The notes: generated from the sequence alone by a model not told the origin. Positions 27,894 through 59,710 are shown, counted from the stretch's first letter. The stretch is DNA of 64,000 bases from Clytia hemisphaerica (GCF_902728285.1 NW_027104280.1:483995-547994), one strand, 5' to 3'. Made by a program: numbers and translations.

Positions 27894-29066
27894 ATGTACG
27901 ATAATAGTACAGACTACATTGTAGCATCTTTAGCAGAGGGAATGGTACCTAATGAGGACCAGAGTGGATTCTCTTTCCAAATAGAACTAATCAAACGGCT
28001 GGAGAGGTTTCTTATCCTTGGTACAGAGGGAAATACTTACTATGCAAGTGAAAAAGACAGAACATATGAAAACATAAGTTGTATAAATGAGCTCTTAGAA
28101 AAAGGAGAAGTGGATAAGGTTTTGCACATTCTCAAAACATTTAGTGTTCAAGGGAGATGTCCAAAAGAGGAACCAATCCTGGTTGCTTTGGTGCAATGTT
28201 GTTATTTCCAAAATGCTGAGATCCGTAAGAAGGCTTATGATTTAGTTACTCCAATTTGTAATATACCAACAAAGCTGTTTAGATTCATTGAGCTTTGTCA
28301 GCAAAACGTCAATCAGGAAAGAACAGCAAAGAAGCATTTAACAGAACTACCAAAAGAGCTCAAGAAGAATCCTCTAAAGCAGAATCCATTAAAAAGGAAA
28401 AAAGAACCGATGGAATCAGAAGAATGCATAGAAGAAGCACCTGATTCAAAAAAAGCCAAAAAGCAGAAGAAGAAAAATAGCCCTTTCAAATCTTATCACA
28501 CTGACAAAGCTCGCTCTTCAGGCTGGGGGCGCATGCGTAGGAGAGGGATATCTAGCTTTTATTGTGATAAGAATAAAAGTGCTGAACGGTTGCTGTATTT
28601 GTTGACAAAGTTTAAAAACCGAAACAATTGGAATCATCGGCAAGTTCTTGGTTACGCTCATCCAAAGATATCCAAAGATGATGAGGAACAAGATGGCAAG
28701 AATTTGGTCCTGGCGTACTGCACCAGAGGCGTGGAAGGTTTTCAGAAGAAGCTAAACGAAATCAAGAGAAGATCAGCAAATTGTTTGCCACAGAATGTGT
28801 CTCGTATTCAAAACTTTGTTCAAATTCTTGAACAGGTCAGTAAGCTATCACCAGAAAATGAAGGTGATGAAGAGAAGCTATTGGAATTTTTACGTGGTTA
28901 TGGCATTCGTGAAAGTGCTGACGAGTTTGCAGTTGAAATTGTACTCCCTGGAGTCCCCCTCACTCCACCTCCACCATCATCTGGTAAAGAAAAAGCAAAA
29001 AATTCTAAGCAACCATTCCAAGTTGTGCGAGAACATATACCAACTGCGTTCCTCAGTTCTGCAAAG
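27894..29066 (+). CDS. RO60: Ro60-like A exon 1
   Basis: Donor aag|gtaaat. The 5' boundary is uncertain. Confidence 0.65.
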
Positions 29067-30655
29067 GTAAATGTTAGTTAACAATGATAACACTGATAGA
29101 CTTTTATTTTATCAATTTTTAGATATGCCACAGTTATCATGATAATTAAGAGATTATTTTAGATTGTAACTTTAAAATTAAGATTAATTTAAAATTTTAG
29201 ATTCCACCTAAAATGATAAATATTGAGTGAGTCATTCATTCATCTTTGTTGTTCTCTTAGGTTTGGGAAGCATTGTTGCAAGACATGCCAATGACAGCTA
29301 TGCTGCGAAACTTGGGGAAAATGACTTCCCTTGGTTTGTTTCAGAAGCCCGAAAACTTGAAAATTGTATTGGACGCTTTAGGTGATACAAATCGTCTTCA
29401 GAAAGCAAGAATTCATCCCATTAAGGTTGGAGTCAATTTATCTTACCTTTCCACTTTTAGCAGTTGATTACAATCAAGTCAGCTGATTCAGTTATTATTT
29501 TTGTGACCATTTTTATGATCCTCATTGTAAGTTCTTCTTACATTACATCTCTTCGTAATGCTAAACAATATTTCTTCACTTTCAGCTTTTGATTGGGATG
29601 AAAGCGTATGAAAATGGTGCTTCATTAAGTATGATGAGTTCTGTCACAAAGACAAACACAACAACATGGGAAGCAAACCAAGAAATTTTGAAAATCTTGG
29701 ATAAAGCCTTCTATAAAAGCTTTAAGGTAATAAGATTGTTTTTTCTTTCAATGCTGATGTTATGGTGTCAGAATGCTGTGATGTAGATTGAAATTTTCAA
29801 ACATGAAAAGCAAAAACTTCCTGAAATTTTAAAAATCTATATCTGCTATTATAAGTGATATCTGCTAATTTTCTCCTTTCAGCAACCAGAAACGCAAGAT
29901 GCATTTAGAACAGGGAAACGGTTTATGTTGGCATTGGATGTCAGTGGTTCAATGACATGTGGTGGCTGTAATGGTTGTGAACAGCTCACCCCCTCCATAG
30001 CTGCCACCGCACTCTCTATGGTCACATGGAATATAGAAGAGCACGTGGAAATGGTGGCCTTTGGTGGTCGTTTGGAGCGATTGGAAGATCATGGTTTACG
30101 CAAAGATTTGACCATCAATGATGCTTGGAGGAAGATGAGTCGGGTACTGATTATCATATTTCAGAGAATATTCTTTAATTCGTTCCAATCGTCTATTTTA
30201 CAAGACCTTTCCAACTCTAAAGTAGAGAAAGAATTCAAGTCTTCTGGGCTATTGAAAAAAAAAACTTTTTGGACCCATCTTTTCTACATTCAACAAATGC
30301 TCCAGAAATTTTTTATGTTGTGTTGTTTAATTGATTCGATAATGTTTTGTTTCAGATCAACTTTGGTTCAACAGATTGTGCGTTACCAATGAATTATGCG
30401 ATAGACCGTAATCTTGATATTGACGTCTTCATTGTTTACACCGATTCCGACACTAATTCATATAATCATCCTCACAAAGCATTGCAAAGATATCGCGAAA
30501 AGATGGGTAAACCTAACGCTAAACTCATCGTGATCGCCTTGACATCCAATGGGTTTTCTATCGCCGATCCTAACGACCGCCACATGCTGGATGTTGTTGG
30601 CTTTGATCCAGCTGTCCCTGAGATGATCTGCAATTTTGTTAACGACAGTTATTGA
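27894..30655 (+). CDS. RO60: Ro60/TROVE2-like RNA-binding protein, paralog A (TROVE + vWA with intact MIDAS), 5 exons
   Basis: join(27894..29066,29261..29425,29586..29726,29883..30143,30356..30655). Collinear with human Ro60 (recalled from memory): [109 protein letters not shown]. The start codon is uncertain: it is the first in-frame ATG before the TROVE core, and the ORF is open further upstream through a G/A/S-rich low-complexity stretch. Confidence 0.8.
29261..29425 (+). CDS. RO60: Ro60-like A exon 2 ([21 protein letters not shown]...ARIHPIK)
   Basis: Acceptor tcttag|gtt; donor aag|gttgga. 165 nt, phase 0. Confidence 0.8.
29586..29726 (+). CDS. RO60: Ro60-like A exon 3
   Basis: Acceptor tttcag|c; donor aag|gtaata. 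141 nt. Confidence 0.8.
29883..30143 (+). CDS. RO60: Ro60-like A exon 4 (vWA MIDAS, DVSGSM)
   Basis: Acceptor tttcag|caa; donor cgg|gtactg. 261 nt. Confidence 0.8.
30356..30655 (+). CDS. RO60: Ro60-like A exon 5 (terminal)
   Basis: Acceptor ttcag|atc; stop tga at 30653-30655. Confidence 0.8.
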
Positions 30656-30937
30656 GCATATCACTCATAACATTGGAGTCTTTCTCGGTGGCTTGAGTGA
30701 TCTCAGTACCACTGGACTCTTTTTTGAAATCGAGCTGTACCAAACTACGGACTCATTTAACCTTGTTTAGGCATTCTTACCTGAGTTGTGCGGGATTCGA
30801 TTGAGAAGCATATAATAAGAATTAATAAAAAGAGTCATAAGGCAGGGAACAAACAATTATATTTCTTGTATAGAAGCAGTTTACATTGAATGCTACACGC
30901 GAGGAGCTGGAAACCAATGTTTCATTCTTTTCAAAAT

Positions 30938-30945
30938 TGACGTCA
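30938..30945. promoter_or_regulatory. Palindromic CRE/ATF-type site TGACGTCA ~540 nt upstream of the paralog B ATG
   Basis: Exact TGACGTCA. Conserved at the equivalent position upstream of paralog C (40061-40068). Confidence 0.25.
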
Positions 30946-31483
30946 CTTCAAAAAACAATGAAATTTCATATACTGTACATACATGCAAGGAATCATTTAA
31001 AGTTTTATATTTCATTTTATTTTATTTTAAACGAACTATAACATCATGTTAGTTTTTTACCAATTTAATTGCTTAAAATATTGCATTGAGCTTGAAGCTC
31101 TTCTTTCAAAATTTAATCAATATATTATACAAAACTTTATAATATTACTTTTATTGTGATTTGATTTCTTTCAAAAATCAATTTCTTTTGTAAATAACCA
31201 TCATCAATATTGATATTGTTTTTGTTTGTGAACTATTTTTATAATCTTTGGAATAATATATCAAAACATTTTGTTTTTCCTCTGCTCTGTTGTCCAAGCT
31301 CCTGATTTCATTGCTTTTTTAGATGTGCTTTGTTAGTTTCTTTAAAAGAATATCCTTCTTAAAGCATTCTGTATTTACCTAATATCTATCATTTCTTTTA
31401 TTTCCACAGAAAAAAAAACAAAAGATATAAATAAACAAAAACACATTGACGGTCACCCTTAGAGGTGAAGAACCACAGCTACT

Positions 31484-32539
31484 ATGGATCCATTCAAAAA
31501 ACTTGCCCTTTTGAAGGCCAAAATGACCAGCATGAGTAGGGCCCAGATTGCGGAAGCCATCCGAAACATGACCCTGGGAGTAAACACAACAGAACAAGAG
31601 CCAGACCTTACTACACCACAAAATCAACCTTTGCAAGGACAGTCACAGAACTCTGCAGGTGGTTTTTCCTACACTGTAGATAATATAACCAGACTGAAAA
31701 GATATCTGATATTAGGTTCAGATAAAGCAAAATACAAGAGTGGCTCTCAAGCAGAAAATGTTCAAAACATTCCAGTTGTTGAAGAACTTTTAAAGGAGGG
31801 CAAGGGAAAGGAAGTGATTGATTTGATCGTTCAGTTTGCTCGTGAAGCACGTATCTCAAAAGAGGAGAACATTTTGATGGTATTACGTGATTGTATGATG
31901 TATCAGGGAGATACCATGTATGAAGATAGGACCATACAACGAGCTGCTTATGACAGTATTGTCAAAATCTGTAATATCCCAACCAAGCTTTTCCGATTGA
32001 TGGAGCTTTGTAAACCATGTTATCAAAATAATTGGAAGCCTTCAACCAAGCCAGTCAGTAAGACGCAACTACGGAAGAAAGCAAAACAAGCAGCTCAACA
32101 GCAGAATCCAGGGCCTTCCACCTCCACTGAAACTGCAACCGCTCAACCACCGTCAGCAAAAGTGCCAGTTGAAACATGTGAAATTGTTGAAGAGGGTGAA
32201 CCTCCCAAGAAAAAGAAAAAGAAGACGAAGAAGAAGAAAAAACCAAAGGAACCCAAACCTCAAACAACGCAAAGGTTCAAAAAATCTTCCAGTTGGGGAC
32301 GTGCTAGACGGCGTGGTGTCGGAAATTTTTACACCGATCCAAGTAAAGATGCCAATCGATTGTTATTGTTGATGACAAAGTACAAACAACGTCATAATTG
32401 GAACCATGTTCAAACGTTGGGTTATTGTCATCCAAAAATGATGGGAGACGAGGAACAAGCTAAGAATATCGTCCTCCAGTATTGCACACGTGGCAAAGAA
32501 AAGTTGGACAAATATCTGGTCAAGAAAAATATCGATGGG
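31484..32539 (+). CDS. RO60: Ro60-like B exon 1
   Basis: ATG at 31484; donor ggg|gtaacg. Confidence 0.8.
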
Positions 32540-35500
32540 GTAACGATATTTCATTCTTTTCTATTTCATTTTTTAAAAATTTGTAAGAAGAGATATGGTA
32601 CTTTCATCACTGTCTGTGTATTGTAGGGAAAAGTTTTCCCAAATCTCTAATCCTTTACTTACACAACATTTAAACAAAAGAAAGAACAACCCCATTTTCA
32701 GAGCTGTGCGAGCACAAATTTTGAGAAATTCTTTTGTTTGTTATACTTTGTCCACCAAGAGGCTTCTTATTAAAAAAGATCCTTAATATTTCCACTACCG
32801 TCCCTGAACACTTCCGGGAGGTAATCGAAAAAGGTCGAATCCAAATACAGCACCATGTATATGTATGTATCATGCCTGATCCAAGTTTAGTAAATATCAT
32901 GAAATTTTCACATTGATAACAATGGTTTCTTAATTTTTGGATTTTCTTTCCAGAATCAACCAATGGATCCAATCACATCTCAAATATTACAACACATAAA
33001 AGTTCTTGAGGAAGTCAAGAACCTGAAACCGGATGTCCCGGCCGATGTGAAGAGATTGCTGGAATTGTTGCACCAATACGGTATTCGGAAGGTGCCACAA
33101 GAATTTGATGTGGACGCTGCAGGTCAGATGGTACAAGTGGAAAACACTCAACGTAAAAAATGTTCTTTTCAACTGACCAGGGAGCATTTACCAAATGGCT
33201 TCCAAAAATTGAAGGAGGTAATAGTTGATCAATTAAACAAAATTTAAAACCGCTAATATACGGTTTTTTCAATCCCGATCAGCCCGATCAGATTTTGAAA
33301 GCTTGACTAAAAGCTCTTTTAATCGTAATTAAATACAATTTCACTCTACTCAACAATCCCAATCTTTCTCCATTAAAATTTTTAGGTTTGGGTGGCTCTA
33401 CTTCAAGACATGCCCATGACAGCCTTGATCAGGAATCTCGGCAAAATGACCAGCCTTGGGCTCTTTGATGATCCGGCAAACAGAGAAATCGTCAAGAAGG
33501 TTTTAGGGGATGGCTCTATTTTGAACAAAGCAAGAATTCACCCAGTCAAGGTTTGCTATTTATTTAGAGTGATGGCCAAGGTGCATAAACCAGGGGCTCC
33601 CTGCTTCTTTCGATGTTCCGATATTGAATAGGCATTTTTCGAGCCCTTTTAGTTTTGGCGCACGTTTTCTACATGCCAATAAAAGCCGGGTGTAAATTTA
33701 TGGGAATACGGTATTTATCTTTTTGCTTATTGGTGATATTTAACGTTAAATTTCGACAATTTTACACTTCACTACTCCTTACATGAATGATCAAATACCA
33801 ACTATATATCCATGCAGGGAAAATTAGAAAAGTAATGCGCCGTGATTGAACCTGTAAGTAATGCACCGTAATTGAACCTATAAATAATGCACCGTGATTG
33901 AACCTATAAGTGATGCACCGTGATTGAACTTGTAAGTAATGCACCGTGATTGAACCTGTAAGTGATGCACCGTGATTGAACCTGTAAGTAATGCACCGTG
34001 ATTGAACCTTGTTACAGATTCTGTTAGCATCAAAGATGTATGAGCAAGGCAATGGTGATCAAGGGCAAAGCCATCAACAACAACAAAAAAATCAAACAAT
34101 TAGTCAATCAACCAAAGAACCACTTACTTGGAGACCAAACGCTGAAATCTCCAAAGCTCTCAATGATGCTTTCTACTTAAGTTTCAGGGTAAGCTCTATT
34201 CTAGAAATGCAGGCATGGTTAACATAGTCAAGCATTCTGCTATAACGAATTCCTATGGCTCGTGCGCTAGAGTTTCATTTATCATTTGAACTTTTATATA
34301 CTTGCTAAAATTGATTAGTTTTCTTGAGAATCTCTTTCATTGTTTCCATAGCAACCCGGCAAGAATTCTTCATTCCGTACAGACAAAAAGTTCATGCTAA
34401 ATCTGGATGTTAGTGACTCTATGGATTGGGGTAACTGTGTAGGGTGTGATTTCCTGACGCCCGCTGCCGCCTCTTTCGCCCTGGCCATGATTACGATGAA
34501 TGTTGAGCCACATTGTAGTGTGTTTTCTTTCGGGGGAACGCTTCAAAATATCGATCATTTATTGAAGAGGGATATGACCATCCTTGAAGCCATTCAAGTG
34601 GGACGCTCTGTAAGTCGAGTCGAAGAAATCTTGTTTTAAATATTCTCATTACTTTATTTCTTCGAACTTGGGCCTCACATAAAACAGAACATCATTCTTA
34701 GAACGTCAAAAATGTCTAATTCCGAATTCTATTTGAATCTTTCTATAGTTCGAACTAATTCCCAGTCCCCATCAGCATCAATTTTCAATATTCCCTTTCG
34801 ACTTTGAATGAGCGAGACTAAAATATATACATTATCGGCCAAAACTTAGCCGGCCTCAATTATTAGTCGGCCCTAATTTTAGTCACATCATCAAAATTTA
34901 GTCACTTAGGGTCGACTAAATTTTGGCCGATAAGGTATAAAAAATCGACTTCCATGTCAATAGCTTTATTCCGCAATTTTCTGTGCTTTCTCTTTTTATC
35001 AGTTATGTCATCATGCCTCATTAAACTTAACTTAGGACATCCATATTATCTTTCAGCTCAATTTCGGTGCAACAGACTGTGCTCTACCAATGGTGCACGC
35101 CACGCAGAACAGGCTGGATGTGGACGTTTTCATCGTTTACACTGACTCCGAAACTTGGATTGGAAAAGTTCATCCTTCTGAAGCTTTAAAGAATTATCGG
35201 CAAAAGATGAACAAACCGGATGCCAAACTCATCGTCATGGCAATGAAGGTTTGTCTGTTCTCCACACGGCCCTGTAATGTAGTCTGTGCCTCTAAAGAAT
35301 CCTGCATTGTAACACACATGCTTAATTTGTCGTTCTTTAAACCATATATAGTTAATTCCCGTGATAAACAAAGAGGAATGAATCTGTAGGGGTGGTACCA
35401 TTGAGTTTCAAGCCGAAGGCTAGAGGTCAATCTCCTTGGTAGGATTTGAAGCCAACAAATCCTACCAAAGTTGCGCGGCCTTGAGCGACCCGCCTGGTTT

Positions 35501-38500
35501 TTACACAAATAACAGATTGAAACTAAAATTTACCGCTTAATTTCGAAAAATATATCACTCGAAAACAAAGGAATTGCTAGATTCAATCCGTCATCAAAAA
35601 TACGGCGCATATTTTAAGGCTTCAATTTTTCTTGCCTGAGAAAGGTTAGAGATTGACCTCTAGCCCTTCGGGCTTGAAACTCAATGGGTGGTACATGTCA
35701 CTTTCGGTCGGGGCTGTGGACGGCCAAATATGTCGATTTTTATGAAATTTGTCGTTTTTTTTGTCTATTTTTAGTAATGCAGGATTCTTTAGATAAACCC
35801 CTCATGATATTATGATATCTCGTTATAAAAAGTGATGGCATCAATTCATTTCAGTCGGTTTCAATCCTGTAAAACCTTAAAAACACACGGTGAATAGGTC
35901 ATCAACTTCTAGTTATTAGAATTCTGTAGATAACCCTTTTCTTTTTCATTGTATTCGAACTCTTTGTATGACTTCCCAAGGGAATGTTGTGGTGCTTATA
36001 AAGACTTTTTTACAGGTTTTGTACGGGATTGTTGTGGTGCATATAAAGACTTTTTTACAGGTTTTGTACGGGAATGATGTGATGCATATTAAAACTTTTT
36101 TACAGGTTTTGTACGGGATTGTTGTGGTGCATATAAAGACTTTTTGACAGGTTTTGTACGGGAATTTTGTGATGCATATAAAGACTTTTTTACAGGTTTT
36201 GTACGGGATTGTTGTGGTGAATATAAAGACTTTTTTACAGGTTTTGTACGGGATTGTTGTGATGCATATAAAGACTTTTTTACAGGTTTTGTACGGGATT
36301 GTTGTGGTGCATATAAAAACTTTTTACAGGTTTTGTACGGGAATGATGTGATGCATATTAAAACTTTTTTGCCTGTTTTTACAGGTTTTGTACGGGGTTG
36401 TTGTGGTGAATATAAAGACTTTTTTACAGGTTTTGTACGGGATTGTTGTGGTGCATAGAAAGACTTTTTTTACAGGTTTTGTACGGGATTGTTGTGGTGA
36501 ATATAAAGACTTTTTTACAGGTTTTGTACGCGGATTGTTGTGGTGAATATAAAGACTTTTTTACAGGTTTTGTACGGGATTGTTGTGATGTATATAAAGA
36601 CCTTTATTACAGGTTTTGTACGGGATTGTTGTGATGTATATAAAGAATTTTTTACAGATTTTGTACGGGATTGTTGTGGTGAATATAAAGACCTTTTTAC
36701 AGGTTTAGTACGGTAATGTTGTAGTGAATATAAAGACCTTTTTTACAGGTTTTATACGGGATTGTTGTGGTGAATATAAAGAGTTTTTTACAGGTTTTGT
36801 ACGGGATTGTTGTGGTGCATATAAAAACTTTTTACAGGTTTTGTACGGGAATGATGTGATGCATATTAAAACTTTTTTACCTGTTTTTACAGGTTTTGTA
36901 CGGGGTTGTTGTGGTGAATATAAAGACTTTTTTACAGGTTTTGTACGGGATTGTTGTGGTGCATAGAAAGACTTTTTTTACAGGTTTTGTACGGGATTTT
37001 TGTGGTGAATATAAAGACTTTTTTTACAGGTTTTGTACGCGGATTGTTGTGGTGAATATAAAGACTTTTTTACAGGTTTTGTACGGGATTGTTGTGATGT
37101 ATATAAAGACCTTTATTACAGGTTTTGTACGGGATTGTTGTGATGTATATAAAGAATTTTTTACAGATTTTGTACGGGATTGTTGTGGTGAATATAAAGA
37201 CCTTTTTACAGGTTTAGTACGGTAATGTTGTAGTGAATATAAAGACCTTTTTTACAGGTTTTATACGGGATTGTTGTGGTGCATATATATTTTATTTTAT
37301 TGGACCTACCCCAGTGGAGGTCCTATAAATTAACCGTTGTATGTTCGTTCGTTCGTTACCAGCTTTTCTCGAGATTGGCTCATTAGTTTTTTCTGATTTT
37401 TTGCACAAAGATGCATAACTATAAACCCTCGAATGTGACGGAGCCCGATTTTCGAAAAAAAAATTTTTAGGCAAATCTGGGCCAAAAAACGGCTAAAAAA
37501 CGGGTTTTTTGGACTTTGTGAAAAATTGGATCATTAATTTTTTCTGATTTTTTGTATCAAAGTAGGGTACCATCATAGGTAAAAGATGGCTCAGGCAGAT
37601 TTTTGTAAAAAAAATTTTTTGGCTCAAAAACGCATGTTTATCTATAAGAATCACTATTAATAAGCATACATCAATGTTCTTAGTCAAATTACTCAATTAT
37701 TTTTATGAGATAGATGTATTTTTTGCTATTGAGGGCTTACTTTTGAAGAATATGTGTGTTTAGACATGAAATTTAGGCTGCTTGGCGTGCTTTTATAGAA
37801 AAACTGGCCTAATTCGATATTTTTTTATAAGCACATTATCAATTACTTAGGTATTAGCTTTTCTCGAGTTTGGCGCTTTCATTCTTTATGATTTTTTGCA
37901 CAAAGATGCATAACTATAAACCCTCGAATGTGACGGAGCCCGATTTTCGAAAAAAAAATTTTTTAGGCAAATTTGGGCCAAAAAACGACTAAAAAACAGG
38001 TTTTTTGGACTTTGTGAAAAATTGGATCATTAATTTTTTCTGATTTTTTGTAGGATAGTAGGGTATCATCATAGGTGAAAGATGGCTCAAGCAGATTTTT
38101 GCAAAAAAAATTTATTGGCTTAAAAAACGCATGTTTATCTATAAGAATCAATATTAATAAGCATACATCAATGTTCTTAGTCAAATTACTAAATTTTATT
38201 ATGAGATCGATGTGTTTTTTTGCTCACGAAGTCTTGAATATGAAAGAATATTTATAGAGCATGAAATTTTGGTTTCTAAACGGTTTTTTATAAGAAACAA
38301 ACGATTAATTTTAATAGATCGTCACTATTAGTGTTCTGAATGATTGTTTAATGGTCACGCTCACGTAGATATCAATTATATATGTGTTAAATGCATAACC
38401 AGGTAGGTCCATAAAGGTATCACTTGTTTTATTTTATTTTTATTTTCCAATTTATTTAACGTTGGGCTGACATCGTTATAATTAAAAATACTAATTAATA

Positions 38501-39377: not shown

Positions 39378-39396
39378 AATCACCAAACAAAGAGAA

Positions 39397-39612
39397 ATGA
39401 AATCCAAACTTTTCTGGTTAGCCTTTGTTTACATGGCTCTAGCTGCTTGTGATTTGGTAATGGTGGTCTTAACATTCATATCGGGAAGAACGGAATTGAT
39501 ACATTATCAACCAGCAAAAAGAGAACGACCATCATTGACTTATTGCAGGGTCCTTGGATTACTGGACAGGTGGGTCAAGCAGGTGATACGAGTTCTGCTG
39601 TTCACTAATTGA
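39397..39612 (+). CDS. Possible downstream small ORF (71 aa, one predicted TM helix) starting 20 nt after the paralog B stop
   Basis: ATG in the context gagaaATGa. LFWLAFVYMALAACDLVMVVLTFI is hydrophobic. Conserved at 45520 after paralog C, but the C-terminal part is frameshifted between copies. Confidence 0.2.
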   Translation: MKSKLFWLAFVYMALAACDLVMVVLTFISGRTELIHYQPAKRERPSLTYCRVLGLLDRWVKQVIRVLLFTN

Positions 39613-40060
39613 GAAGATCTGTAGATTAGCACCCGTGTTTTTCAGTAGCCTGTTTTTTTTTTTTGGGGGGGGGGGTTAGAAATTGTAATTACGAAACCCC
39701 AAAAATAAGGTAAATATAGGCTAAAATCAGGCTATTTAAAGCAGAATAAGGGACCCTCTCTTAGAAAGTTGAAAAAAAATAATTAAAAATTAATAAACGG
39801 GGGGGGTCCTAATAAGGTCCGGTGGGGGGGGGGCTGGAAAATTTTCGAAAAATTAACAAGCGGGGCCCGTTTGTTTGGAACCTAAGAGTACTTGGAGTTG
39901 TGCGGGATTCGATTGAGAAGCATAAGAATCTATAAAGAGAGAGTCATAAGGCATAGGGAACAATGATATTGATATTGATGTATTTTATTGTATAGAAGCA
40001 GTTTACATAGAATGCTACACGTTCAGGAGCTGGAAATCAGTGTTTCATTCCTTCCGAAAT

Positions 40061-40068
40061 TGACGTCA
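40061..40068. promoter_or_regulatory. Palindromic CRE/ATF-type site TGACGTCA upstream of paralog C
   Basis: Exact TGACGTCA in a block conserved with the B upstream region. Confidence 0.25.
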
Positions 40069-40765: not shown

Positions 40766-40913
40766 TTTTTTAGTATCTTTAAAAGAGTATCTTTCTTAAA
40801 GTATTCAGTATTTACCTAATATCTATCATTTCCTTTATTTCCACAGAAAAAAATTAATAAATATACAAAAACACATTGACGGCCACCCTTAGAGGTGAAG
40901 AACCACAGCTACT

Positions 40914-45500: not shown

Positions 45501-45519
45501 AATCACCAAACAAAGAGAA

Positions 45520-49900: not shown

Positions 49901-51521
49901 CAGATCATTTCGCTCTACTTCACACTTCGACAGAAAACCAAGAAAAACAGAGGCTCCACTAAAACTGTTCAAAACAATAAAGATAAAGTCCTCAAAGCCT
50001 TATACCGTGCCTTTCATCTTTGTCTGCAGGTATGTATCCCTGACCCATTTTTTAGAGAAGGATCGGCCCTCCCGAACGATCAAATAACACCAGGCTCGTG
50101 TACCGAACTTTTCTAACACAATAGCGCTCTGCAACGCATACGTCATAATTGTTACTTTTGACTTTTTTTGACATTTGTACGAGTTGCAATCCCACAACTC
50201 AATGCGGCTCAATTTAAGATACGTGCAAATTGTTATATATATCTTTTGTCAAATGATGCAATTAACGTGCAAAAGAGATTAACGCAAAGGTTGATAGAAC
50301 TGGAACTCGATATGGACGTGTCGGTTCAACCGATATTGTTCAATGGCCCTCCGTAATACTGTTTTTACTGTATTTTGAAACTTTAAAACTTTTCTTCGTT
50401 TTGAGGTGTAAACTAACTAACTTTAAAGTATTTCCTTTTTAACTCTTTTTAGAGCGATGATATGAAACAAATCTTCTCTACTCACAAAAGACACTGTATA
50501 GCATTAGACCTCCGCCCTCAAATGTTCGAAAAGAAAAGGGATTCCGCCTTCACGCCTATCGAAGCCGCCCTTTGTTATGTTATGTGTTTGTATTATTACG
50601 AGGAATATTTCCATATTTACGCCTACAATAAAGAAATGGACAGCATAAAACAACATTTCACTCGAAACTTCGAGCTCAACGAACTAAGGGACACATTTCA
50701 AAAGGTATTTTATATGCCCTTCACATAAATATAGGACCAGAATAAGAGTAAAATACAATATTTCACACCTTTTCGACCGTTGCAGACAATTTTCGCGCGG
50801 CTATTTTTTTGTCTGTTTTACCACCCTTATACCGCCCAGTCTTTTTTTCGCATCTATAGACAATAGAAAAAGGTGTAAAAAAGGATTGGATCTAGTTTAA
50901 GGGGGATAATTAAATAATAAAGTGGCACGCGCCTGACCGCGCGACTACGGTCGAAAAGGTGTATTTGTTTGAAACATTACAAGCCTAGGTTGGCTTGAAA
51001 AAAATATCAAGCTTTCTAAAGGTGGGAGGGGGGGGAGTTGGTTTTATAAAAAGGTGGTGTTCAAGTTAACCATTTCGGGAATTGTTGAATTTTTAAATAT
51101 GTTTTAATTATTCCATCAATTTTTGTTTTAGATGAAAAACGAAGAGACAGTCAATTATCATGCTTTTCTTCACCATGCTTTCGAAAAGCGAATCGATACA
51201 GACGCTTTTGTTTTCATTTCTTCCGATTCTCCAAATACCGACTTCGAACAATTATCGACCTTAATGACCACTTACCGAACGAAAATGCATCGCCCTGACA
51301 CTAGTGCGTTTCTATGGCAACTCATGAGCCAGGGTATTCAACCCAGGGTAGATTCGCCTGTCTGTTTACTTCAGGGTGTTGATAAAAATGTTTATTATTA
51401 CCTGAATGCAGCGGTTCGTTTTGCTGGCATCACCGCGCAGCCTGTTTTGTCCGCCGCTTGCGAAGCATCACAACCTGACGTTGATACGAGTGTAGAATTA
51501 GGAACTTGGAGAGTTGGCTAG
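46729..51521 (+). CDS. Divergent TROVE-domain / vWA-like paralog D (MIDAS degenerate), 6 exons
   Basis: join(46729..46960,47395..48815,49461..49628,49904..50029,50453..50704,51132..51521). Same exon architecture and phases as A-C. Motifs: IRQFYSFVLTGNTTGHF (cf. FLCFGSEGGTYY), a poly-K insertion, SLRKCFTKF, VWVEIVEDLPYML...KVHPTQ, ALYRAFHLC, HCIALDLRPQMF (replaces DxSxS), DAFVFISSDSPNTDFEQLSTLMTTYRTKMHRPD. Exon 1 is speculative. Confidence 0.65.
47066..47310. repeat. Degenerate GAATGA/GAACGA-type microsatellite-like tract in intron 1 of paralog D
   Basis: aacgcataaatgaa / gaatgaatga / gaacgagaga motifs. Produces spurious S/F/I-rich minus-strand ORFs. Confidence 0.6.
47395..48815 (+). CDS. Paralog D exon 2 (TROVE core)
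   Basis: Acceptor ttttttcag|gt; donor aag|gtaggt. 482-aa open frame. Confidence 0.65.
49461..49628 (+). CDS. Paralog D exon 3
   Basis: Acceptor tttgtag|gta; donor caa|gtatga. Confidence 0.6.
49798..49884. mobile_element. ~90-nt hairpin element (cccagctggcacacaacgttgtttcaacgtt...aacgttgaaacaacgttgtg) about 20 nt upstream of the exon 4 acceptor of paralog D
   Basis: 31-bp stem with one mismatch. The right terminus is truncated relative to the copy at 53775. Confidence 0.6.
49904..50029 (+). CDS. Paralog D exon 4
   Basis: Acceptor ttttcag|atc; donor cag|gtatgt. Confidence 0.6.
50453..50704 (+). CDS. Paralog D exon 5 (degenerate MIDAS)
   Basis: Acceptor tttttag|agc; donor aag|gtattt. Confidence 0.6.
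51132..51521 (+). CDS. Paralog D exon 6 (terminal)
   Basis: Acceptor ttttag|atg; stop tag at 51519-51521. Confidence 0.6.
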   Translation: MKNEETVNYHAFLHHAFEKRIDTDAFVFISSDSPNTDFEQLSTLMTTYRTKMHRPDTSAFLWQLMSQGIQPRVDSPVCLLQGVDKNVYYYLNAAVRFAGITAQPVLSAACEASQPDVDTSVELGTWRVG

Positions 51522-52453
51522 ACAAAGAGCTTTTCTTTTGTATTTTTTGGATCGCTAAAATTTTTGTCAAATACAAAAAATCTAAATTTGATTTTTGTTG
51601 CTTTAGAACTTAAAGTTTTTGATACATCATAATTTATTTTTATGTATATTCTCACATTATTGTACATAACTTTACTGTACAATTTTATTCAATTTTGATT
51701 TTTAGGTAGTTTTTTAAATTCCATGCCGTCGTGTCGGTGGGGCGTATATTTAGAGAATATTTAGGCTCAAGTCTGTTCACAAAAAAATGGCAGTCTACAC
51801 ACATTTTCACACACTGATCTCGTTGGAGGAGGAGAAATCCGCTCCAAATTATCTTTTCAACGAGGTATTATTTTCATTATATCTTTTCTCCATCAAAATC
51901 AATGTTTGAAGAAGTATGAACTGTCAACTTTTTTGGAACAGACATTTAATAATCAAATATATGAAAAAGCTTTTTGGGTGTTGTTGCAAAACATAATTAC
52001 TATCTCTTTGACCTCTTTGGGATATATAGGTCGTTACGAATGTCAGTTAATTTAAGACATTTTCTTGATTGCTTCAATGTTTTGTTTCTTCAGATTTAAC
52101 ATAAAACAATAAAAATTTATAAAAATAAAAAATAAATTTAAAATATTGAATACAAAATGGATGAATGGCATTGGCCTGTGTTTTTGGTGTCTGGAAAACC
52201 CAAGTAAAAGAAGAGAGGAAACGCCAGAGAGAAGAAACATGGGGGAGAACACAAACTGTAAGTTTGACTCACTTGTTTTCATTTCCCGCAAAATTTGGCG
52301 TGTTTTTTCGGTTTAATAATTTTACGGAAATACCCTTTTAGTTTTGTTCAATTTATATCCTACTTTCTCCCGTGAAAACTTGCTACCCTCATCCTTTCTT
52401 TAAATGCCAGTTCTTAATAACAGGGCGAACCTTCTTGTAAAAAGTTTACAAAT

Positions 52454-52822
52454 TTATAAGATGTTGTATTTTTGTAGCCAATCAGGAATTTTGAGCACTT
52501 CAACCTTCCTCTTCACTGCGGAGCCGCTCTTCGCTTTTCTTCTCCCTCTCCACGCTTTGGCCCCTTTTTGTTGATTAGTCCAGCATTTGTCACAGACCAT
52601 GGATCTCTTTCCACGCCATGCGTTTTCATTGGTTTTGCCAACCATGTCGTCACCAGTCTCCGGGTTTTGGTTGTGGCGCTTACACAAACATAACGCTTTC
52701 CGCCTGTTGAACCACTTCAAAAGGATTTCCTGTTCTGCGATACTTAATGGCTGTTCTTGTTCTCTTTTGACGTTCGATATCTGTCCCGGTTTGTGAATTT
52801 CTTGATTCTGATATCCGCCCAT
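52454..52822 (-). CDS. Hypothetical small basic Cys-containing protein (122 aa), single ORF between paralogs D and E
   Basis: The GC-richer ORF MGGYQNQEIHKPGQISNVKREQEQPL...CLCKRH...CDKCW...KRKVEVLKIPDWLQKYNIL stands out from AT-rich flanks. Has a CxC..H...CxxC arrangement. No confident family assignment. Confidence 0.3.
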   Translation of the reverse strand: MGGYQNQEIHKPGQISNVKREQEQPLSIAEQEILLKWFNRRKALCLCKRHNQNPETGDDMVGKTNENAWRGKRSMVCDKCWTNQQKGAKAWRGRRKAKSGSAVKRKVEVLKIPDWLQKYNIL

Positions 52823-53774
52823 CTCGAAAATTGTGTTTTCTTTAGGGATAAGTTGCAGTGAAAACCTTTCTCGTTGATCCAGTGATTGTACTGAAATGAC
52901 AAGTAAAATTTCTTCAATCTCGATTACATTTCGAACCTTGAATAGAAGTTAAAAACAGGAGTGGTAGACTAGTCTCAAATTTGAACAAACTGAGGAGAAA
53001 AACTTTGAATTTTGCAAAGAATTTTGTGTCATTAACTTGGTATTCAATTTGACTTACCATTTGGTTTTGCGAGGATACATGAAGGTATAATGAACAGCAA
53101 AATATAAATCATGTTGTGTGTGTGTGTGTTCGTTGTTCTACAATACGTCGTGAACGAAATCCTTTACCTTTTATGCACCCCTCACTAGAAGGTAATGTCT
53201 GGGAACCAAACAGATGACAAAGTGTTATTTTATGAGGGGAGGGAAATTAAAAAAAACAAAAAGAATTTTGTAGGGTTTATATGAATTAAAATCTTCCTTT
53301 TTAATGTCTTTTAAAAGGACCGGTATGACACTTCTTCTTTTGTCTGTTTGTTTTTTTGAAGCATGAAAAGGAGTGAGAAAAAGGAGGTAATTCTTCCTAT
53401 TTCTTTGATGAAGGGAAATTTCGCGAATTAATTACATCTGCCCTCTCTGTTTTGCGCGAGAAAAATGGGTTCGAGAGATATTTTACCGCAATTAAGTCGA
53501 GTGTGAGATCCTATGACGTTCTCACGTCCTTTTTCATTGTTGACCCCCCTAACAACATATTATACAAATCCGCTGTTTTATCGTTACGATATAATTAAAG
53601 ATTTTCTTATTTCTTAGATTTTAAACTCTGTTGAAAGTAATGAAATATTAAATAAAACAAAAGAAGAATTTATGAAATGTCTTATAGGAGTCTTTAATTA
53701 AAGTGAGACATAAAATGATATAATTGTCAATATACTGGTACTGCCAGCAAAAAAACTCTTATGAAATAATTAAC

Positions 53775-53871
53775 CCAGCTGGCACAAAACGTTGTTTCAA
53801 CGTTTATCTAATGTCCATAACGTCCATATAACGTTAGGTGAACGTTGAAACAACGTTGTGTGCCAGCTGGG
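53775..53871. mobile_element. Complete copy of the same hairpin element (42-bp stem, cccagctgg...ccagctggg termini, left flank TTAA) immediately upstream of the first recognisable exon of paralog E
   Basis: ttaa|cccagctggcacaaaacgttgtttcaacgtttatctaatg..cgttaggtgaacgttgaaacaacgttgtgtgccagctggg|aatg. Confidence 0.6.
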
Positions 53872-53890
53872 AATGCCCCTAAATTTACAG

Positions 53891-54712
53891 TTTTAGATCA
53901 CGAAGAAGTCCGAATCGCGGATCGCTTATTCTCTTTATCGGAAGATACTTCAATACAACCGGTTCTCGTGGTTACAAATGGTAGCTTTTCGCTTGAGAGG
54001 CGCTTTAAAGAACTATCCATCCACACTCCACCCAAAGATGTGGCGGCCCGCCTTCTTGGTGAATATGAATATTATGGAATCAACGAATTGAAGAAATTTC
54101 TAAGGATAGGATGCAAAGCCTGTCCACAGTTCACTGAATGTCATAAAGATAAAAAGAAAGTCGAATCCGTAGCTCAAAAACATCAGCACGAATGTTTACG
54201 GATCGTTCGAAATTTATTGGCCATAGGAAAAAGTGCCGAAATCATTGACTTGGTCAAAGAGAAAACAGGTTGTCTACTGTTGCATTATGAGCCGCTATTC
54301 ACTGTGCTAAGTCTTTGTAGTATCATCGGAGAGAAACCGGTCCGCAAGCAGATTTACGAAATTGCGTTGGAGATGTGTTTCAACTGCCCACGACTCTTTT
54401 ACTTTGTGGCTTGCAGTGAACACTTCCGCCATTTACTTGATGACGTGGCGACAAGCGGCAAACAGGACAAACGCGTCAAATATTGGGAACCTTTGCGCAG
54501 GCGCATGATTGCCAGGTTCTACAATAGATACGAACCACATGAACTGCTGTACATGACCACACGCCACAAGCAACGTTATAAAATCACGCACCGAACAATC
54601 TTGTGCAAAAGTCGACCCCCACCTCGCGGTGACCATAAAGAAGCCATTGACTTGATCTTTTGTTATTTGTCACGTGGTTTCAACAAAACGGAAGCGAAAG
54701 CTAATGTTAAAG
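53891..54712 (+). CDS. Paralog E first recognisable exon (partial)
   Basis: Open from the hairpin element; putative acceptor tttacag|tt; donor aaag|gtcagt (phase 1). Confidence 0.45.
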
Positions 54713-57700
54713 GTCAGTCTTCTTGATAACTATTGAACTTTGGTAAAAATCATAAAAATGATATTTTCTTTAGAGTTTTGGTAACTTCCATTTTTACGGC
54801 GCTAACTACCCAAAAGTCCGCTCAACCTCCAATTGCTTTTCTGAGCACTGATTGGTTTATTTGGCTCAATTACATCATAATTTTGAGATTCGACCAATCA
54901 AATTGATTGATTGGATAGCTAGCTGTAAGTGCGGTTTAAATGTCAGGACTCTTTATAAGCGGACATTTCGTGTATGTGAATCAGGCTTTTAACTTTTAAT
55001 TGATGAATTCAAAGAAGTAATGGATGGATTTTATTATTTTTTAGGAAAAGCAATCCAGCCCATGACGAGCTCAGTATTTCAGAAAATTGAATTACTGGAA
55101 GAAATCAAAAGTCTGTCATTCAACGATGAAAACATTGGCAAGTTGCAGAGAATCATTGAAGAGAATATTAAGCATGAAACGATTAATGAATGGCAAGGTT
55201 ACAGTCAACCGTCACCAACAATCCTCTTCTTTAATGTTTTATTGGAACACATCCCAAATGAATTCCTTAGACAATACAAGGTGATTATTTATCCAGGTTT
55301 TCCCCTGCGTTGGCAATACCATATTCTTATCCTCTCCTCACGCAGACTCTCCTCCAAAATTCAGTTTAATGTGTTAGATTTGTTAAGCACAATCTGGCAA
55401 GAGCTTCACTTGTAAAAGTCGACGTTTCTTTGTTTCAAATAATGTCAGCCTAACATCATTTCACTTCAATAATGATTAGAGCTAACAACAGTTTGTAAAT
55501 CAAATTTTCTCTTTATTCTGGTCCGTAGATTTTGCGATCGTTGCTTCCCGGAATGCCGATCGGGACGTTGATCTTTAAACTTGGCGTGATATCGCATCAT
55601 GGTTTATTCATGGAAAATAGCGGTGATACTCCTGCAACGAAAGAACAAGTTGATGAAAATATTCAAACTGCACTCCAAATAATCAAAGATCAAAAAAATA
55701 GGCTGCATCCTTTTAAGGTAAAATTTGATTTATTGCAAATCGATACATCATGCTACGGATTTGGTTAAGTTAACCGAGGCTATATTTCAAAGTCGGTGTG
55801 ATTTGCAAACATTTTCGGGGAGATTGGGATGTTTTCCATGTAGCTATGTGTAAAATAGAATACAGCGGTACGATTCAAACATTAGTTTTAAAGATGTATC
55901 CTTGATATAGAGGATTTCGATTTATGGTTTGAATTGTGAAAAACCTGCTGTTCTATTTAAGACCTTTAAGATCTCTAACACTACGGTACAAACGGTGTGA
56001 TCGTGTTCCCTTTTACATACTTTTGTCTTATGTTACTTTCAGATTTTGAAAGCAGCGAAGTGCTACAGTACAGGGCAAGCTGACTTGCGCATTTACACAA
56101 GAAAAATCGCCGAAAGAAAGTCGTTAAGGACATCGTTGACATGGAAACCCAGTCCACAGATCATAGATGCTCTTTATGAGGCTTTCCGCACCCAACAGGT
56201 TTGTCTTTTAGGAATGTGTTTTGAATTATCGATATGAATGTTCTTGCTTTGCTTCCAAATAATCTGAAGCGGAGACAAAAAGGGTGTAACATTGGAATTT
56301 AAATTAGGTTGCACTTTTATGCTTGTTGAAAAGACATTTAAGAGTGGAATATTACTAAAGTCTATTCACGATAAGTGTGCACTCTTTTTTCTTTTACCTA
56401 TAACTTTTGAAGGAATTCTTCAATCTTTATAAATTTGGTATCATTGGAAAGATATTAGTGAGTGGAACAGTTTGAAATAAAAAAATCTTTTAAAAAATTC
56501 TAGAAATGAAGATGAAAATGAAGAAGAAAAAAATTAAGATCTTGTAGAAAAGTGCTACAACAACCATTTTCACAGAAGTAAATCCTTGATCATCTAACGT
56601 CATCACTGTGAAAAAACGTCTCAAAAATAATTATTCAGTCAAAAGATATTAAACAAAGTTATAAGCTGATTGACGTCTAAAAACGCTGTTTTCTGCTGTT
56701 TTCTGCTGTTTTTGGGTCAATCACTTACTAACTTTGTATCATAACTTTATACAGTATTGAACATATATATTTTAGTGAAATTTCTTCACAGTGATGACCT
56801 CCTAAGATCAAGGAATCTCTCCAGTGAAAATGAAAGTTATAGCACTTTTCTACAAGATCTTAATTTTTTTCTTCTTCATATCCATCTTCATTTCTAGAAT
56901 TTTTTTAAAGACTTTTTTATGTCAAATTGTTCCACTCACTAATATCTCTCCAACGATACCCACTAATATCTCTCCAACGATAGCAAATTTATAAAGATTG
57001 AAGAATTCCTTCAAAAGTTATAGGTAAAAGAAAAAAGAGTGCACACTTATCGTGAACAGACTTTAAAGAAAAAATTCTAAAAAGATACAATTTTAAAAGC
57101 TTACATAGCATTTTTTTCAACGCTTTAGATTATAATGAGATGAATTTTATGTAATCTACGTAATTTGGCGTATATTTGGGATAAGCTACTAGGATTGGGT
57201 ATTAAGTAGGTGTTTATCAAATCATGATGGACCGGATTCTTTAGGTGTCTTAACCCTTCGAGCATCTTGCCCCCCCCCCCCAAAAAAAAAAAAACACTTT
57301 TAATAACTTTTGAAATACTGGTCCAATGGACTTGAAATTTTGCAAGTGTGCACAAAATATGAATTGGCATCTTTGGTAAAAATTTCGGCTTCATTGATGA
57401 CGTCATTACCACCTGATTACGTCATGATTTTTTTTAAATGCCCAAAATAGGACCCTTGCCATTTCTTGCAACCTGTTAGTATCGTGTAATTTACAGACCG
57501 GCCCAAAATTGCCCTTTTTGCCTAAATTAGCCTTAGGTTACTGTATCTTAGGATTGGAGAATGTTGTTGACTTGAAATTTCGACAAGTGGTAGGTATTGA
57601 TAATACAAGCTTGCAGCCAAAATTTCAGCAAAATCGAACGAGTGGTTCTGCTAAAATTGAGCATTTCTGGTAAAAAAACGAACCGGTCTGTAAAATACCA

Positions 57701-59710
57701 ACAACTCACGTGATCAAATTGACATTTTGCAAACTGTCTTAGATGGTCAATATCTATCACTAGTGAACATTTCAACTCAAAAGTTCCAGTAGTTCCTGAG
57801 TACCGGCAGAGGGTTGGCAAACGATATCATCCACCAGGATGCATCCTCTCTTATTTTCCCCCTACTTTCTTTTTTCCTATCTTCTATCCTGATTTTCTGA
57901 CTTTCCCAAGTTCCGGAGTACCGGCAGGGAGTCTACATGTATTTTACAGACCGGTCGCATGACCAAATACTCATGTGACCAAATTTTCTCCGTTACTCGT
58001 CTTTTCTATTTGACAAAATAGCCTTAAGAAACAAATTTCAATCATCCAAAAGAAACTACTGGTCTACTAAACTACAAACTAAATCTACTGCTGGTAAAAG
58101 TTTCAAGTTCATAGAACTTGTCAATCTTGAGATTTTAAGGTGCTTCTATGAAGATTCGTTATTTATTCGTTATTTCGTTAATTCGAAAGGTTAACAACAA
58201 GAGTATCGAAGGGGAAAAAGTGTGTTAGCCCTTTTGCAATGTAGGTGTAATTATTCTTACCTTTGTCTGAATAAATCGTTGAAATCCCCTGGAGTATTTT
58301 TCAATCCATTATTTTATTCACGGCTGTGTGACCACTATCCCGCCATTATGAAAAAGCTTCTATTTTGATCTCAGATATACTGTAGACCCGTATTATCTCT
58401 AAAATGTTTTTTACTTTTCGACGAGTTATAGCGCTCACTCTGATACAACATGATCTGGAAGCCTTTCTAACTCTTCACATTAAATTCTTCATTAGGTGGT
58501 GGAAGGATGTGTGTCCGAGAGAAAGATATTGTTTGCTATGGATAATAGATGGACAGAAATGTATAAGGAGCAACTTCAAGGCTGCCCATCCCTCACTCCT
58601 ATCGATGCTGCAAACATATTACTGTATCTCTTATGGAAAGCACAGAAGGATGAAAATGAAGTTGTATTTTATGGGAAAAGAGGAGAAATCATAAAGTTGA
58701 AAGCCTTTGCAGAAAATAAGTTGGAACATTTTGAAAAAGATTTACGGGAGGTAGGGTTTTCTATATTTGACAGAATAGACTGGAGTCGATTAGAATCCGT
58801 GTAATACAGTAATAAGGTTGTTTTACGATAATACGATAACTGTTACGGGATAATATCAGTTTGTGTACCACGATTTGTCCCCTCCATTATTGGACCTACC
58901 TCCGGGTACCCCGGTGGAGGTTCTATAAATTAACCCATGTCCGTTCGTTAGTTCGTCCGTCCGTCTGTTACCAGCTTTTCTCAGGATTGGCTCATTAGCT
59001 TTTTCTGATTTTTTACTCAATGATGCAAAATGGCAATGCCCAGAACGTGACGGAGCCCGATTTTTGAGAAAAAATTTATTTGGGCAAATTTGGGCCAAAA
59101 ACAGCTTCAAAGTTTTTTTGGGCCTGAATGGTTCAAGTGATTTTCATATTTGGGGAAATTCCTTTTTACCATTTTACATTATTCAACACACAAGCTTTAT
59201 TTTTCCATTCTGAATTTCTGTACAATTATTGTCACTTTTTTCTTATTTTCATCTTATGTTAATCATTAGGTAGGCCTATTCAACATGTTGCTTGTTTTTT
59301 GATTATTTTCTGTATTGTCGTCTAGTATGCTAAGCTAAAAATATGTACCTTCTTTCGGCCCTTGCATTTTTTCATTTAATGAGTTTCATCGGCTTTATAA
59401 TTACACTATACTGTTTTCTTTCCAGAAATCATCAAAAGCTGGCCCAATAAATTTGATCAAAACCATCGAGCATGCCGAGAAATTGAAAAAGTTTGATGCC
59501 ATTGTAGTGTTGACGGATAAAAAACCACGTTTTGCGACTGGTGGTGTAATCAACGAATGGGAGAAGTACAAGAAGATACTCCCTGATGCTAAAATGGTTT
59601 TAGTGTGTTTGAATGAATGTAAATGTTTTGGATTTGGGAGAGATGATATGTTATACATGTGTGGTTGGGATGAAAATAGTTTTGCAAATATAGCTCATTT
59701 TCTGATGTGA
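53891..59710 (+). CDS. Divergent TROVE-domain / vWA-like paralog E (MIDAS degenerate); 5' exon(s) and start codon not identified
   Basis: join(<53891..54712,55045..55280,55529..55717,56043..56198,58496..58750,59426..59710). Motifs: LGEYEYYGINELKKF, WEPLRRRMIARFYNRYEPHELLYMTTRHKQR, QPMTSSVFQKIELLEEIKSL (cf. B exon 2 QPMDPITSQILQHIKVLEEVKNL), ILRSLLPGMPIGTLIFKLG...RLHPFK, ILKAAKCYSTGQAD...LTWKPSPQIIDALYEAFR, RKILFAMDNRWTEM (MIDAS lost), DAIVVLTDKKPRFATGGVINEWEKYKKILPDAKMVLVCL. There is no in-frame ATG in the first recognisable exon. Confidence 0.6.
55045..55280 (+). CDS. Paralog E exon
   Basis: Acceptor ttttttag|ga; donor aag|gtgatt. Confidence 0.6.
55529..55717 (+). CDS. Paralog E exon
   Basis: Acceptor ccgtag|att; donor aag|gtaaaa. 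Confidence 0.6.
56043..56198 (+). CDS. Paralog E exon
   Basis: Acceptor ctttcag|att; donor cag|gtttgt. Confidence 0.6.
56355..57068. mobile_element. Foldback element (~300-bp inverted arms) in the exon 4-5 intron of paralog E
   Basis: ctaaagtctattcacgataagtgtgcactc... is the reverse complement of ...gagtgcacacttatcgtgaacagactttaaag. Inner arms tgatgacgttagatgatcaagg also match. Confidence 0.75.
58496..58750 (+). CDS. Paralog E exon (degenerate MIDAS)
   Basis: Acceptor cattag|gtg; donor gag|gtaggg. Confidence 0.6.
58892..59276. mobile_element. GGACCTACC-family element in the last intron of paralog E
   Basis: ggacctacctccgggtaccccggtggaggttc ... ttaggtaggcc. Confidence 0.65.
59426..59710 (+). 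CDS. Paralog E terminal exon
   Basis: Acceptor tttccag|aaa; stop tga at 59708-59710. Confidence 0.6.
   Translation, partial: KSSKAGPINLIKTIEHAEKLKKFDAIVVLTDKKPRFATGGVINEWEKYKKILPDAKMVLVCLNECKCFGFGRDDMLYMCGWDENSFANIAHFLM

Follow-up and report, generated by a model that had tools for sequence, protein, structure and literature searches.

Five tandem Ro60 genes, two of them strongly diverged, in Clytia hemisphaerica, a hydrozoan jellyfish

The 64,000-nucleotide (nt) stretch of DNA from the hydrozoan jellyfish Clytia hemisphaerica analyzed here, which we call the window, carries five genes of the Ro60 family in head-to-tail order on the plus strand. A reading made from the sequence alone (the sequence-only reading) had placed five genes with TROVE and von Willebrand factor A (vWA) domains at this locus, and the array was recovered at exactly 27894-59710. 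The window has a G+C content of 31-39% and is eukaryotic in character. Long plus-strand open reading frames (ORFs) at ~27.5-29.1, 31.5-32.6, 40.9-42.1, 47.4-48.9, and 53.8-54.7 kb served as entry points, and the first three of these match Pfam TROVE directly. A family hidden Markov model (HMM) was built from homologs of gene A exon 1, and, in a six-frame scan of the window with this model, exon-sized matches fell into five colinear series on the plus strand, with none elsewhere in the window. Introns were placed by the combination of GT-AG boundaries, frame continuity, and agreement with homologs, which led to the gene models A to E listed in Table 1 together with the other features of the locus. 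GT-AG boundaries are found at 28 of 28 introns across the five genes. Four phase-0 introns lie at homologous positions in all five: one preceding VW.., one following ..HPxK, one preceding the vWA domain, and one within that domain ahead of xNFG. The coding sequence of the vWA domain is spread over two to three exons, at variance with the single terminal vWA exon that had been proposed. Taken with the family comparisons below, we consider it virtually certain that this is a real five-gene Ro60 array.

Table 1. Genes, inserts, repeats, and neighbors in the window (positions counted from its first letter; aa, amino acids; TRF, Tandem Repeats Finder)
Feature	Position	Strand	Details
Gene A, canonical Ro60 ortholog-like	27894-30655	+	679 aa, 5 exons: 27894-29066, 29261-29425, 29586-29726, 29883-30143, 30356-30655
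Gene B	31484-39377	+	739 aa, 7 exons: 31484-32539, 32954-33217, 33386-33550, 34018-34188, 34352-34609, 35057-35248, 39264-39377
Gene C	40914-45500	+	764 aa, 7 exons: 40914-41981, 42356-42619, 42823-42987, 43621-43854, 43997-44254, 44650-44841, 45387-45500
Gene D, diverged D-type paralog	46729-51521	+	862 aa, 6 exons: 46729-46960, 47395-48815, 49461-49628, 49904-50029, 50453-50704, 51132-51521
Gene E, diverged paralog	52161-59710	+	679 aa, 7 exons: 52161-52257, 53891-54712, 55045-55280, 55529-55717, 56043-56198, 58496-58750, 59426-59710
Lys-rich insert, A	28302-28520	+	73 aa
Lys-rich insert, B	32024-32290	+	89 aa
Lys-rich insert, C	41454-41732	+	93 aa
Lys-rich insert, D	47916-48254	+	113 aa
Equivalent segment, E	54427-54480	+	18 aa only, no poly-K insert
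Recent tandem segmental duplication giving B and C	30783-45777	+	unit 30783-39656 matches 39895-45777 (self-BLASTN)
Minisatellite of 45-46 bp in B last intron	35980-37287 and 38612-39244		28.5 and 14.1 copies (TRF)
Repeat element between the B minisatellite blocks	37295-38430		matches 11316-11938 at 85-86%
Asparagine synthetase neighbor	17080-18459	-	459-aa exon, Asn_synthase E 6e-69
Rhodopsin-family G protein-coupled receptor (GPCR) neighbor	5514-6536	-	single exon, 7tm_1 E 2e-13

Three of the five models can be compared with existing records. XP_066929344.1, annotated as "RNA-binding protein Ro60-like [Clytia hemisphaerica]," has the same sequence as the C model, and the 90%-identity cluster of this protein is represented by a 764-aa transcript-derived EukProt model, TCONS_00071016. 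XP_066929347.1, "RNA-binding protein RO60-like [Clytia hemisphaerica]," agrees with the E model at 100% identity and, because it contains the short first exon of that gene, allowed this exon to be placed. The D model corresponds to a protein (P0041) that NCBI lists as "uncharacterized protein [Clytia hemisphaerica]" and UniRef as "RO60 vWA domain-containing"; the sole difference is an 86-aa N-terminal extension in our model, which derives mostly from the first exon. No match to the exact products of the A (679 aa) and B models was returned by a look-up in the protein collection. The 5' end of gene A is uncertain, in that its frame is open upstream to 27525 (123 codons) without an ATG. The N terminus as modeled is in register with that of vertebrate Ro60. 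Because acidic N-terminal extensions are present in A-type relatives, the gene may start further upstream, with a coding exon that we did not recognize. The upstream frame itself (27525-27893) is acidic and rich in Gly, Ala, and Gln, and it contains a 21-bp repeat at 27695-27744.

The coding regions are closely spaced, with intergenic gaps of 828 (A-B), 1,536 (B-C), 1,228 (C-D), and 639 bp (D-E). No AATAAA or ATTAAA is present within 600 bp 3' of the C stop codon, and the first such signal past the D stop codon lies at +587, i.e., beyond the E start codon. Hydrozoans use spliced-leader trans-splicing. Given the short gaps of 639-1536 bp, the scarcity of poly(A) signals, and this mode of splicing, polycistronic transcription of the array is worth considering.

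The products of A, B, and C show all the sequence hallmarks of the family. With Pfam cut-offs of 23 bits for TROVE (PF05731) and 27.7 bits for vWA_Ro60 (PF25045), they match TROVE with E values of 2e-37, 5e-32, and 6e-36, respectively, and vWA_Ro60 with 6e-56, 2e-54, and 4e-56 (184-190 bits). The D product passes the vWA_Ro60 cut-off (41.3 bits, E 2e-10) and has no Pfam TROVE match, and the E product falls below both thresholds (27.4 bits for vWA_Ro60, 0.3 under the cut-off, and 16.2 bits versus 23 for TROVE). The joined ORFs of A-C thus hit both profiles outright and that of D the vWA profile, and the TROVE domain of D and E is recognized with more sensitive methods only (see below). In BLASTP comparisons, A is 43-47% identical to B and C (E 1e-175 to 1e-179), and B is 90-94% identical to C (E 0). 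Over nearly their full length, E shares 24-25% identity with A-C (E 1e-26 to 1e-31) and D ~19-21% (E 1e-15 to 1e-19); D and E are 22% identical to each other (E 0.002). The division into three canonical and two strongly diverged genes in the sequence-only reading is thus borne out by Pfam, BLASTP, and the motifs described below, and its estimate by eye of "well under 30%" identity for D and E agrees with the 19-25% that BLASTP gives versus the rest.

Vertebrate Ro60 is the top sequence match in the PDB for A, C, D, and E. The E values are 5e-93 for A with Xenopus Ro60 (1yvp), 6e-83 for C with human Ro60 (9nen), 4e-14 for E with human Ro60 (over Ro60 residues 62-239), and 7e-8 for D with vertebrate Ro60. 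A comparison of a D-type family profile with a canonical Ro60/Rsr profile by hhalign gave a probability of 99.85% (E 9e-31), the 489 aligned columns extending from the N-terminal HEAT repeats as far as the C terminus. AlphaFold2 (AF2) models were made for D and E only. The D model (predicted local distance difference test score [pLDDT], 74.8) matches human Ro60 with a Foldseek E value of 4e-14 and a template modeling (TM) score of 0.83, and the E model (pLDDT, 69) matches Ro60 with an E value of 2e-20 and TM scores of 0.68-0.78. Ro60 structures are the sole strong PDB matches of both models (TM 0.65-0.83, target normalized), although the AF2 input alignments contained Ro60 homologs, which makes the fold match not fully independent. 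On profile comparison and predicted fold, D and E belong to the Ro60 family.

Telomerase/vault-associated protein 1 (TEP1), which has the TROVE module in common with Ro60, was considered as an alternative identity and rejected. TEP1 combines TROVE with a NACHT NTPase and WD40 repeats (PMC11277228), whereas none of the five Clytia proteins has a significant NACHT or WD40 match in Pfam, and the chains terminate directly behind the vWA domain and a last helix. The sole NACHT-related match is a subthreshold NCH1 hit in A (E 0.012, 15.8 bits versus a cut-off of 27). Moreover, four of the five proteins pass the threshold of the Ro60-specific vWA_Ro60 profile, with E 0.3 bits short.

The sequence motifs associated with Ro60 function separate A-C from D and E. 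The MIDAS of vWA domains (metal ion-dependent adhesion site), defined as DxSxS..T..D (PMC11277228), is intact in A (DVSGS..STD..TDSD), B (DVSDS), and C (DVSGS), and it is lost in both D (DLRPQ, Thr gone) and E (DNRWT). The WGR motif reads GWGRxRRRG in A-C (WGRMRRRG in A), so that the WGR.RRRG landmark of the sequence-only reading applies to these three genes; the motif is degenerate in E (WEPLRRRM) and absent from D, which has KLRHKSLRK instead. Likewise, the TKYKQR motif is present in A-C as T-K-(Y/F)-K-x-R-x-N-W-N-H (A also has AHPK) and takes the form TRHKQRYKITH in E. In D, TKYKQRxGW is replaced by SRDVEWERKEEYDF, and the region of this motif, SRDVEWERKEEYDFVDF, carries an acidic insertion. 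The basic motifs of D are thus replaced by neutral or acidic sequence, and the net charge of the segment from WGR to VW is 0 in D, compared with +8 to +10 in A-C and +8 in E. The equivalent of His187 is His in A-C and D and Arg in E; in Xenopus Ro60, the H187S substitution abolishes Y RNA binding (PMC11277228). The pattern of D extends to the whole D-type clade described below, which lacks WGR, carries an acidic insertion in the TKYKQR motif, and keeps the His187 equivalent.

A second feature is a Lys-rich insert that follows the ..LFxF helix and precedes the WGR motif, with a net charge of +10 to +21 in A-D. Of the landmarks that all five genes had been thought to share, the phase-0 introns are indeed common to all, but this poly-K insert is confined to A-D. 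In the AF2 model of D, the insert is predicted to be disordered (residues 198-280, pLDDT <50). Relatives of the A, B/C, and D types in other organisms carry this insert as well.

The strong divergence of D and E raises the question of whether they are decaying, functionless leftovers of tandem duplication. Their 19-25% identity to A-C, the loss of MIDAS from both and of the basic motifs from D, the absence of a Pfam TROVE match in D and its subthreshold score in E, and the failure to find an E ortholog would all fit such pseudogenes. However, both genes maintain open frames of 862 and 679 codons over six to seven exons with canonical splice sites, where ~7% of random codons would be stops given the base composition, and NCBI and UniRef model both as proteins. 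For D, eight relatives at 29-74% identity emerged when its large exon was run with HMMER in a full scan against 1.8 billion representative proteins, and a neighbor-joining (NJ) tree places D in a clade of nine members with 100% bootstrap support, so that at least eight other members stand beside it. One of these, P0029, is full length (786 aa) and encoded without a break on a contig of 2.8 kb from the assembly of a sequencing run; we take this contig to be a transcript. Finally, D exon 2 compared with its 74%-identical ortholog from a marine-biofilm metagenome (L004) gives a ratio of nonsynonymous to synonymous substitution rates (omega) of 0.16 at a synonymous divergence (dS) of 0.86. On these sequence comparisons, D is under purifying selection and not a pseudogene, and we regard decay of D and E as very unlikely. 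A separate pattern search for D-type loci in JGI metagenome contigs yielded 600 matches, none of which was confirmed. The D-type N-terminal exon also contains a motif, NM(A/R)V(R/K)TE, that is found in Clytia D exon 1 (46729-46960), in an ORF at 5517-6086 of contig L005 located 5' of the D-type gene P0028, and in P0029; canonical Ro60 lacks any such motif.

Relatives of A, B/C, and D are also found in other organisms. They come from marine metagenomes or transcriptomes and can be assigned to types by identity: P0001-P0003 are A-type (45-50% identity to A versus 33-35% to B/C), and P0006 is B/C-type (50% to B/C versus 39% to A). On contig L005, from another species, the B/C-type gene P0006 is followed ~2.7 kb on by the D-type gene P0028 on the same strand, in the order seen in Clytia. 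Two canonical copies that share 62-64% identity lie in tandem on contig L001. Because of the B/C-then-D arrangement on L005, we consider the array to be older than Clytia, with gene order conserved at least in part. The sequence-only reading was right about a tandem expansion, but the expansion is not specific to this genome, given the A-, B/C-, and D-type relatives elsewhere, the synteny on L005, and the tandem pair on L001. In the NJ tree, B/C group with P0006 at a bootstrap of 76; the positions of A, E, and vertebrate Ro60 have bootstraps of only 15-40, and we therefore draw no conclusion on branching order.

B and C, in contrast to the other paralogs, whose synonymous sites are saturated in all remaining pairs, have diverged little. 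Self-BLASTN shows ~94% identity in exon 1 and 83-92% in the other matched segments, which consist largely of intron and flanking sequence; for the 5' flanks (30783-31334 versus 39895-40434), the identity is 83%. The coding sequences differ by a dS of 0.095 and a nonsynonymous divergence (dN) of 0.026 (omega 0.28). By these measures, B and C are a recent duplicate pair, the only recent split in the array. Could they instead be two haplotypes of one locus that were misassembled in tandem? The 90-94% protein identity and the contiguous duplicated unit would be expected in that case. Yet the divergence is high for alleles, both at synonymous sites and in the segments outside exon 1 (83-92%, with the 5' flanks at 83%), and the two copies differ in structure: the last intron of B measures 4 kb and holds a satellite and an inserted element, compared with 545 bp in C, and C has a 25-aa Q-rich insertion. 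As for an assembly artifact affecting the array at large, A, D, and E are far too diverged, and tandem Ro60 genes occur on independent contigs of other species. A literature search returned no usable value for heterozygosity in Clytia. We find the haplotype explanation hardly credible.

The difference in last-intron length (4,015 bp in B versus 545 bp in C) is accounted for by expansion of a minisatellite together with an inserted repeat (Table 1). The minisatellite unit of B is also found at 45290-45367 in the last intron of C, in fewer than two copies. The G-rich strand of the minisatellite explains a spike in GC skew of +0.28 to +0.36 at 36-40 kb. The inserted repeat belongs to a dispersed family whose members are 75-86% identical (37295-38430, 11316-11938, 13153-14739, 58907-59121, and 59825-60258); copies are thus present in the last intron of E and just 3' of E as well, and the copies at 14283-14672 and 59971-60186 share a 13-residue translated motif. 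In the homologous intron 3 of both genes, a 26-bp tandem repeat has 6.9 copies in B (33830-34009) and 3 copies in C (43534-43612). A CAA/Gln-rich expansion in exon 4 of C (43714-43770) accounts for ~25 residues that B lacks. Elsewhere in the array, a palindromic element of ~90 bp that resembles a miniature inverted-repeat transposable element (MITE) and matches itself in reverse is found in D intron 3 (49796-49884) and E intron 1 (53772-53871), the two copies being 93% identical. Because of this MITE-like element, a bacterial-style ORF list falsely extends E exon 2 upstream to 53845.

The sequence-only reading had also raised the possibility of an antiviral module, which in its strongest form would make the array a rapidly diversifying antiviral or RNA-surveillance system in which an arms race had shaped D and E. 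Mammalian Ro60 binds retroelement transcripts and misfolded RNAs, according to a review, and diverged paralogs in tandem are a typical trait of immune gene families; in addition, D and E are fast evolving. Nevertheless, omega calculated over whole alignments is well below 1 for both B/C (0.28) and D (0.16), which corresponds to purifying selection, and the paralogs belong to old lineages that are conserved between species and not species specific. The identifiable neighbors, a GPCR gene and an asparagine synthetase gene, are not defense genes and have no obvious tie to RNA surveillance or defense. This proposal thus lacks support, and we consider it improbable.

Further from the array, an inverted repeat of 367 bp with 95% identity has its arms at 3504-3870 and 4151-4510, ~280 bp apart. 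Rfam searches of the window at E <= 5 gave subthreshold matches only, mostly to microRNA (miRNA) families, several of them on both strands at one place, which suggests palindromic repeats. Among these are near-perfect hairpins at 16054-16132, 24939-25053, and 61620-61708, which match mir-263, mir-2131, and mir-2804 on both strands at 37-40 bits, under the gathering scores; we take these hairpins to be probable palindromic repeats and not miRNA genes.

How do the five proteins compare with known Ro60 systems? They share with vertebrate Ro60/SS-A (RO60, TROVE2; 1YVP from Xenopus and 9NEN from human) the TROVE HEAT-repeat ring and the Ro60-type vWA domain. MIDAS, WGRxxRK/R, TKYKQRNGWSH, and His187 of the vertebrate protein are kept in A-C, and the AF2 models of D and E superpose on it at TM 0.65-0.83. 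The differences are in copy number, as vertebrate Ro60 is to our knowledge a single gene and Clytia has five tandem copies; in the insert, which comprises ~7 residues in Xenopus Ro60 and 73-113 aa of Lys-rich, apparently disordered sequence in A-D; and in the linker before the REHxP motif, which is longer in A-C. Moreover, MIDAS is missing from both D and E, the basic motifs are missing from D, and His187 has become Arg in E. Bacterial Rsr (Ro sixty-related; Deinococcus radiodurans, 2NVO) has the same fold and domain order and is matched by A at E 5e-67 and by C at 1e-68. Bacterial Y RNA genes adjoin rsr, whereas no Y-like RNA was detected by Rfam near the Clytia genes. In Deinococcus, a Y RNA tethers Rsr to PNPase. 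The Ro60 of phage phiLo (9L5Y), again of the same fold and domain order, retains the ring at ~17% identity and, unlike D and E, keeps the metal site (PMC12135203).

We believe it highly probable that the locus represents an old tandem family of five Ro60 genes, generated by repeated head-to-tail duplication, in which A-C are canonical-like and D and E are altered rings. A-C have the sequence features of a working Ro60, i.e., the HEAT-repeat ring, a vWA domain with a full MIDAS, WGRxxRR, TKYKQRxxWxH, and the His187 equivalent. By analogy, they probably function as canonical Ro60: the ring would hold a Y-like RNA on its outer face, and misfolded noncoding RNAs would be threaded by their 3' ends through the basic central hole. 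This outline follows what is established for Ro60. A would probably be the ancestral housekeeping copy, and B/C a second lineage that was recently reduplicated. D and E might be neo- or subfunctionalized ring proteins in which the specificity for clients or partners has changed and a MIDAS metal is no longer used. Judged from their motifs, the chances that RNA binding in D and E is altered, or has lost its canonical form, seem to us about even. The Lys-rich loop of A-D, disordered as predicted, could contribute to nuclear targeting and/or provide nonspecific affinity for RNA.

Several points weigh against this picture of an old family with working and altered rings. Among the five Clytia genes, transcript-derived support is confined to C. 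One search, limited by its word index, found no E-type ortholog, and the case for constraint on E is accordingly its intact frame of 679 codons. The fold match of D and E is partly dependent on Ro60 homologs, as mentioned above. The roles assigned to K170 and R174 are presumptive. No Y RNA or stem-bulge RNA (sbRNA) was found in the window with Rfam, either at gathering thresholds or at E <= 5; this is weak evidence because Y RNAs were, as of 2009, largely unknown beyond deuterostomes, some Drosophila species, and C. elegans (PMC2655684). Finally, the role of the MIDAS that D and E have lost is unclear in Ro60 itself (PMC12135203).

More tentatively, the old-family reading can be taken a step further. 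The D-type proteins, and perhaps E, might constitute undescribed hydrozoan Ro60-derived rings without MIDAS or basic motifs that are under purifying selection and linked to canonical Ro60 genes across species. The array could then operate as a multi-Ro system, in which the rings have separate RNA clients or one ring regulates another; we offer this as a possibility that we consider somewhat less likely than its opposite.

Part of the array was known already, as C and E are labeled Ro60-like in RefSeq and D is "uncharacterized." What is new is the old tandem Ro60 family as such, including a divergent subfamily that lacks MIDAS and basic motifs and is not recognized by Pfam TROVE. In a search of 8 million full texts, we found no account of Ro60 paralogs or arrays, or of D-type proteins, from Clytia, hydrozoans, or cnidarians, and a comparative-genomics paper on Turritopsis does not mention RO60, TROVE, or TEP1. 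The array is an unusual expansion of a gene family rather than a system of a new kind.

As far as we know, Ro60 has been studied as one gene per genome. The physiological role of the protein is debated (PMC2965120). In this context, one Clytia locus provides natural variants of the ring with and without MIDAS, with and without the basic motifs, and with and without a large Lys-rich loop. Published methods exist for knocking down Clytia genes (PMC9525680). A comparison of the RNA clients and localization of A-E could therefore show what determines Y RNA binding, the capture of misfolded RNA, and nuclear targeting, and it could also reveal the Y RNAs of cnidarians.

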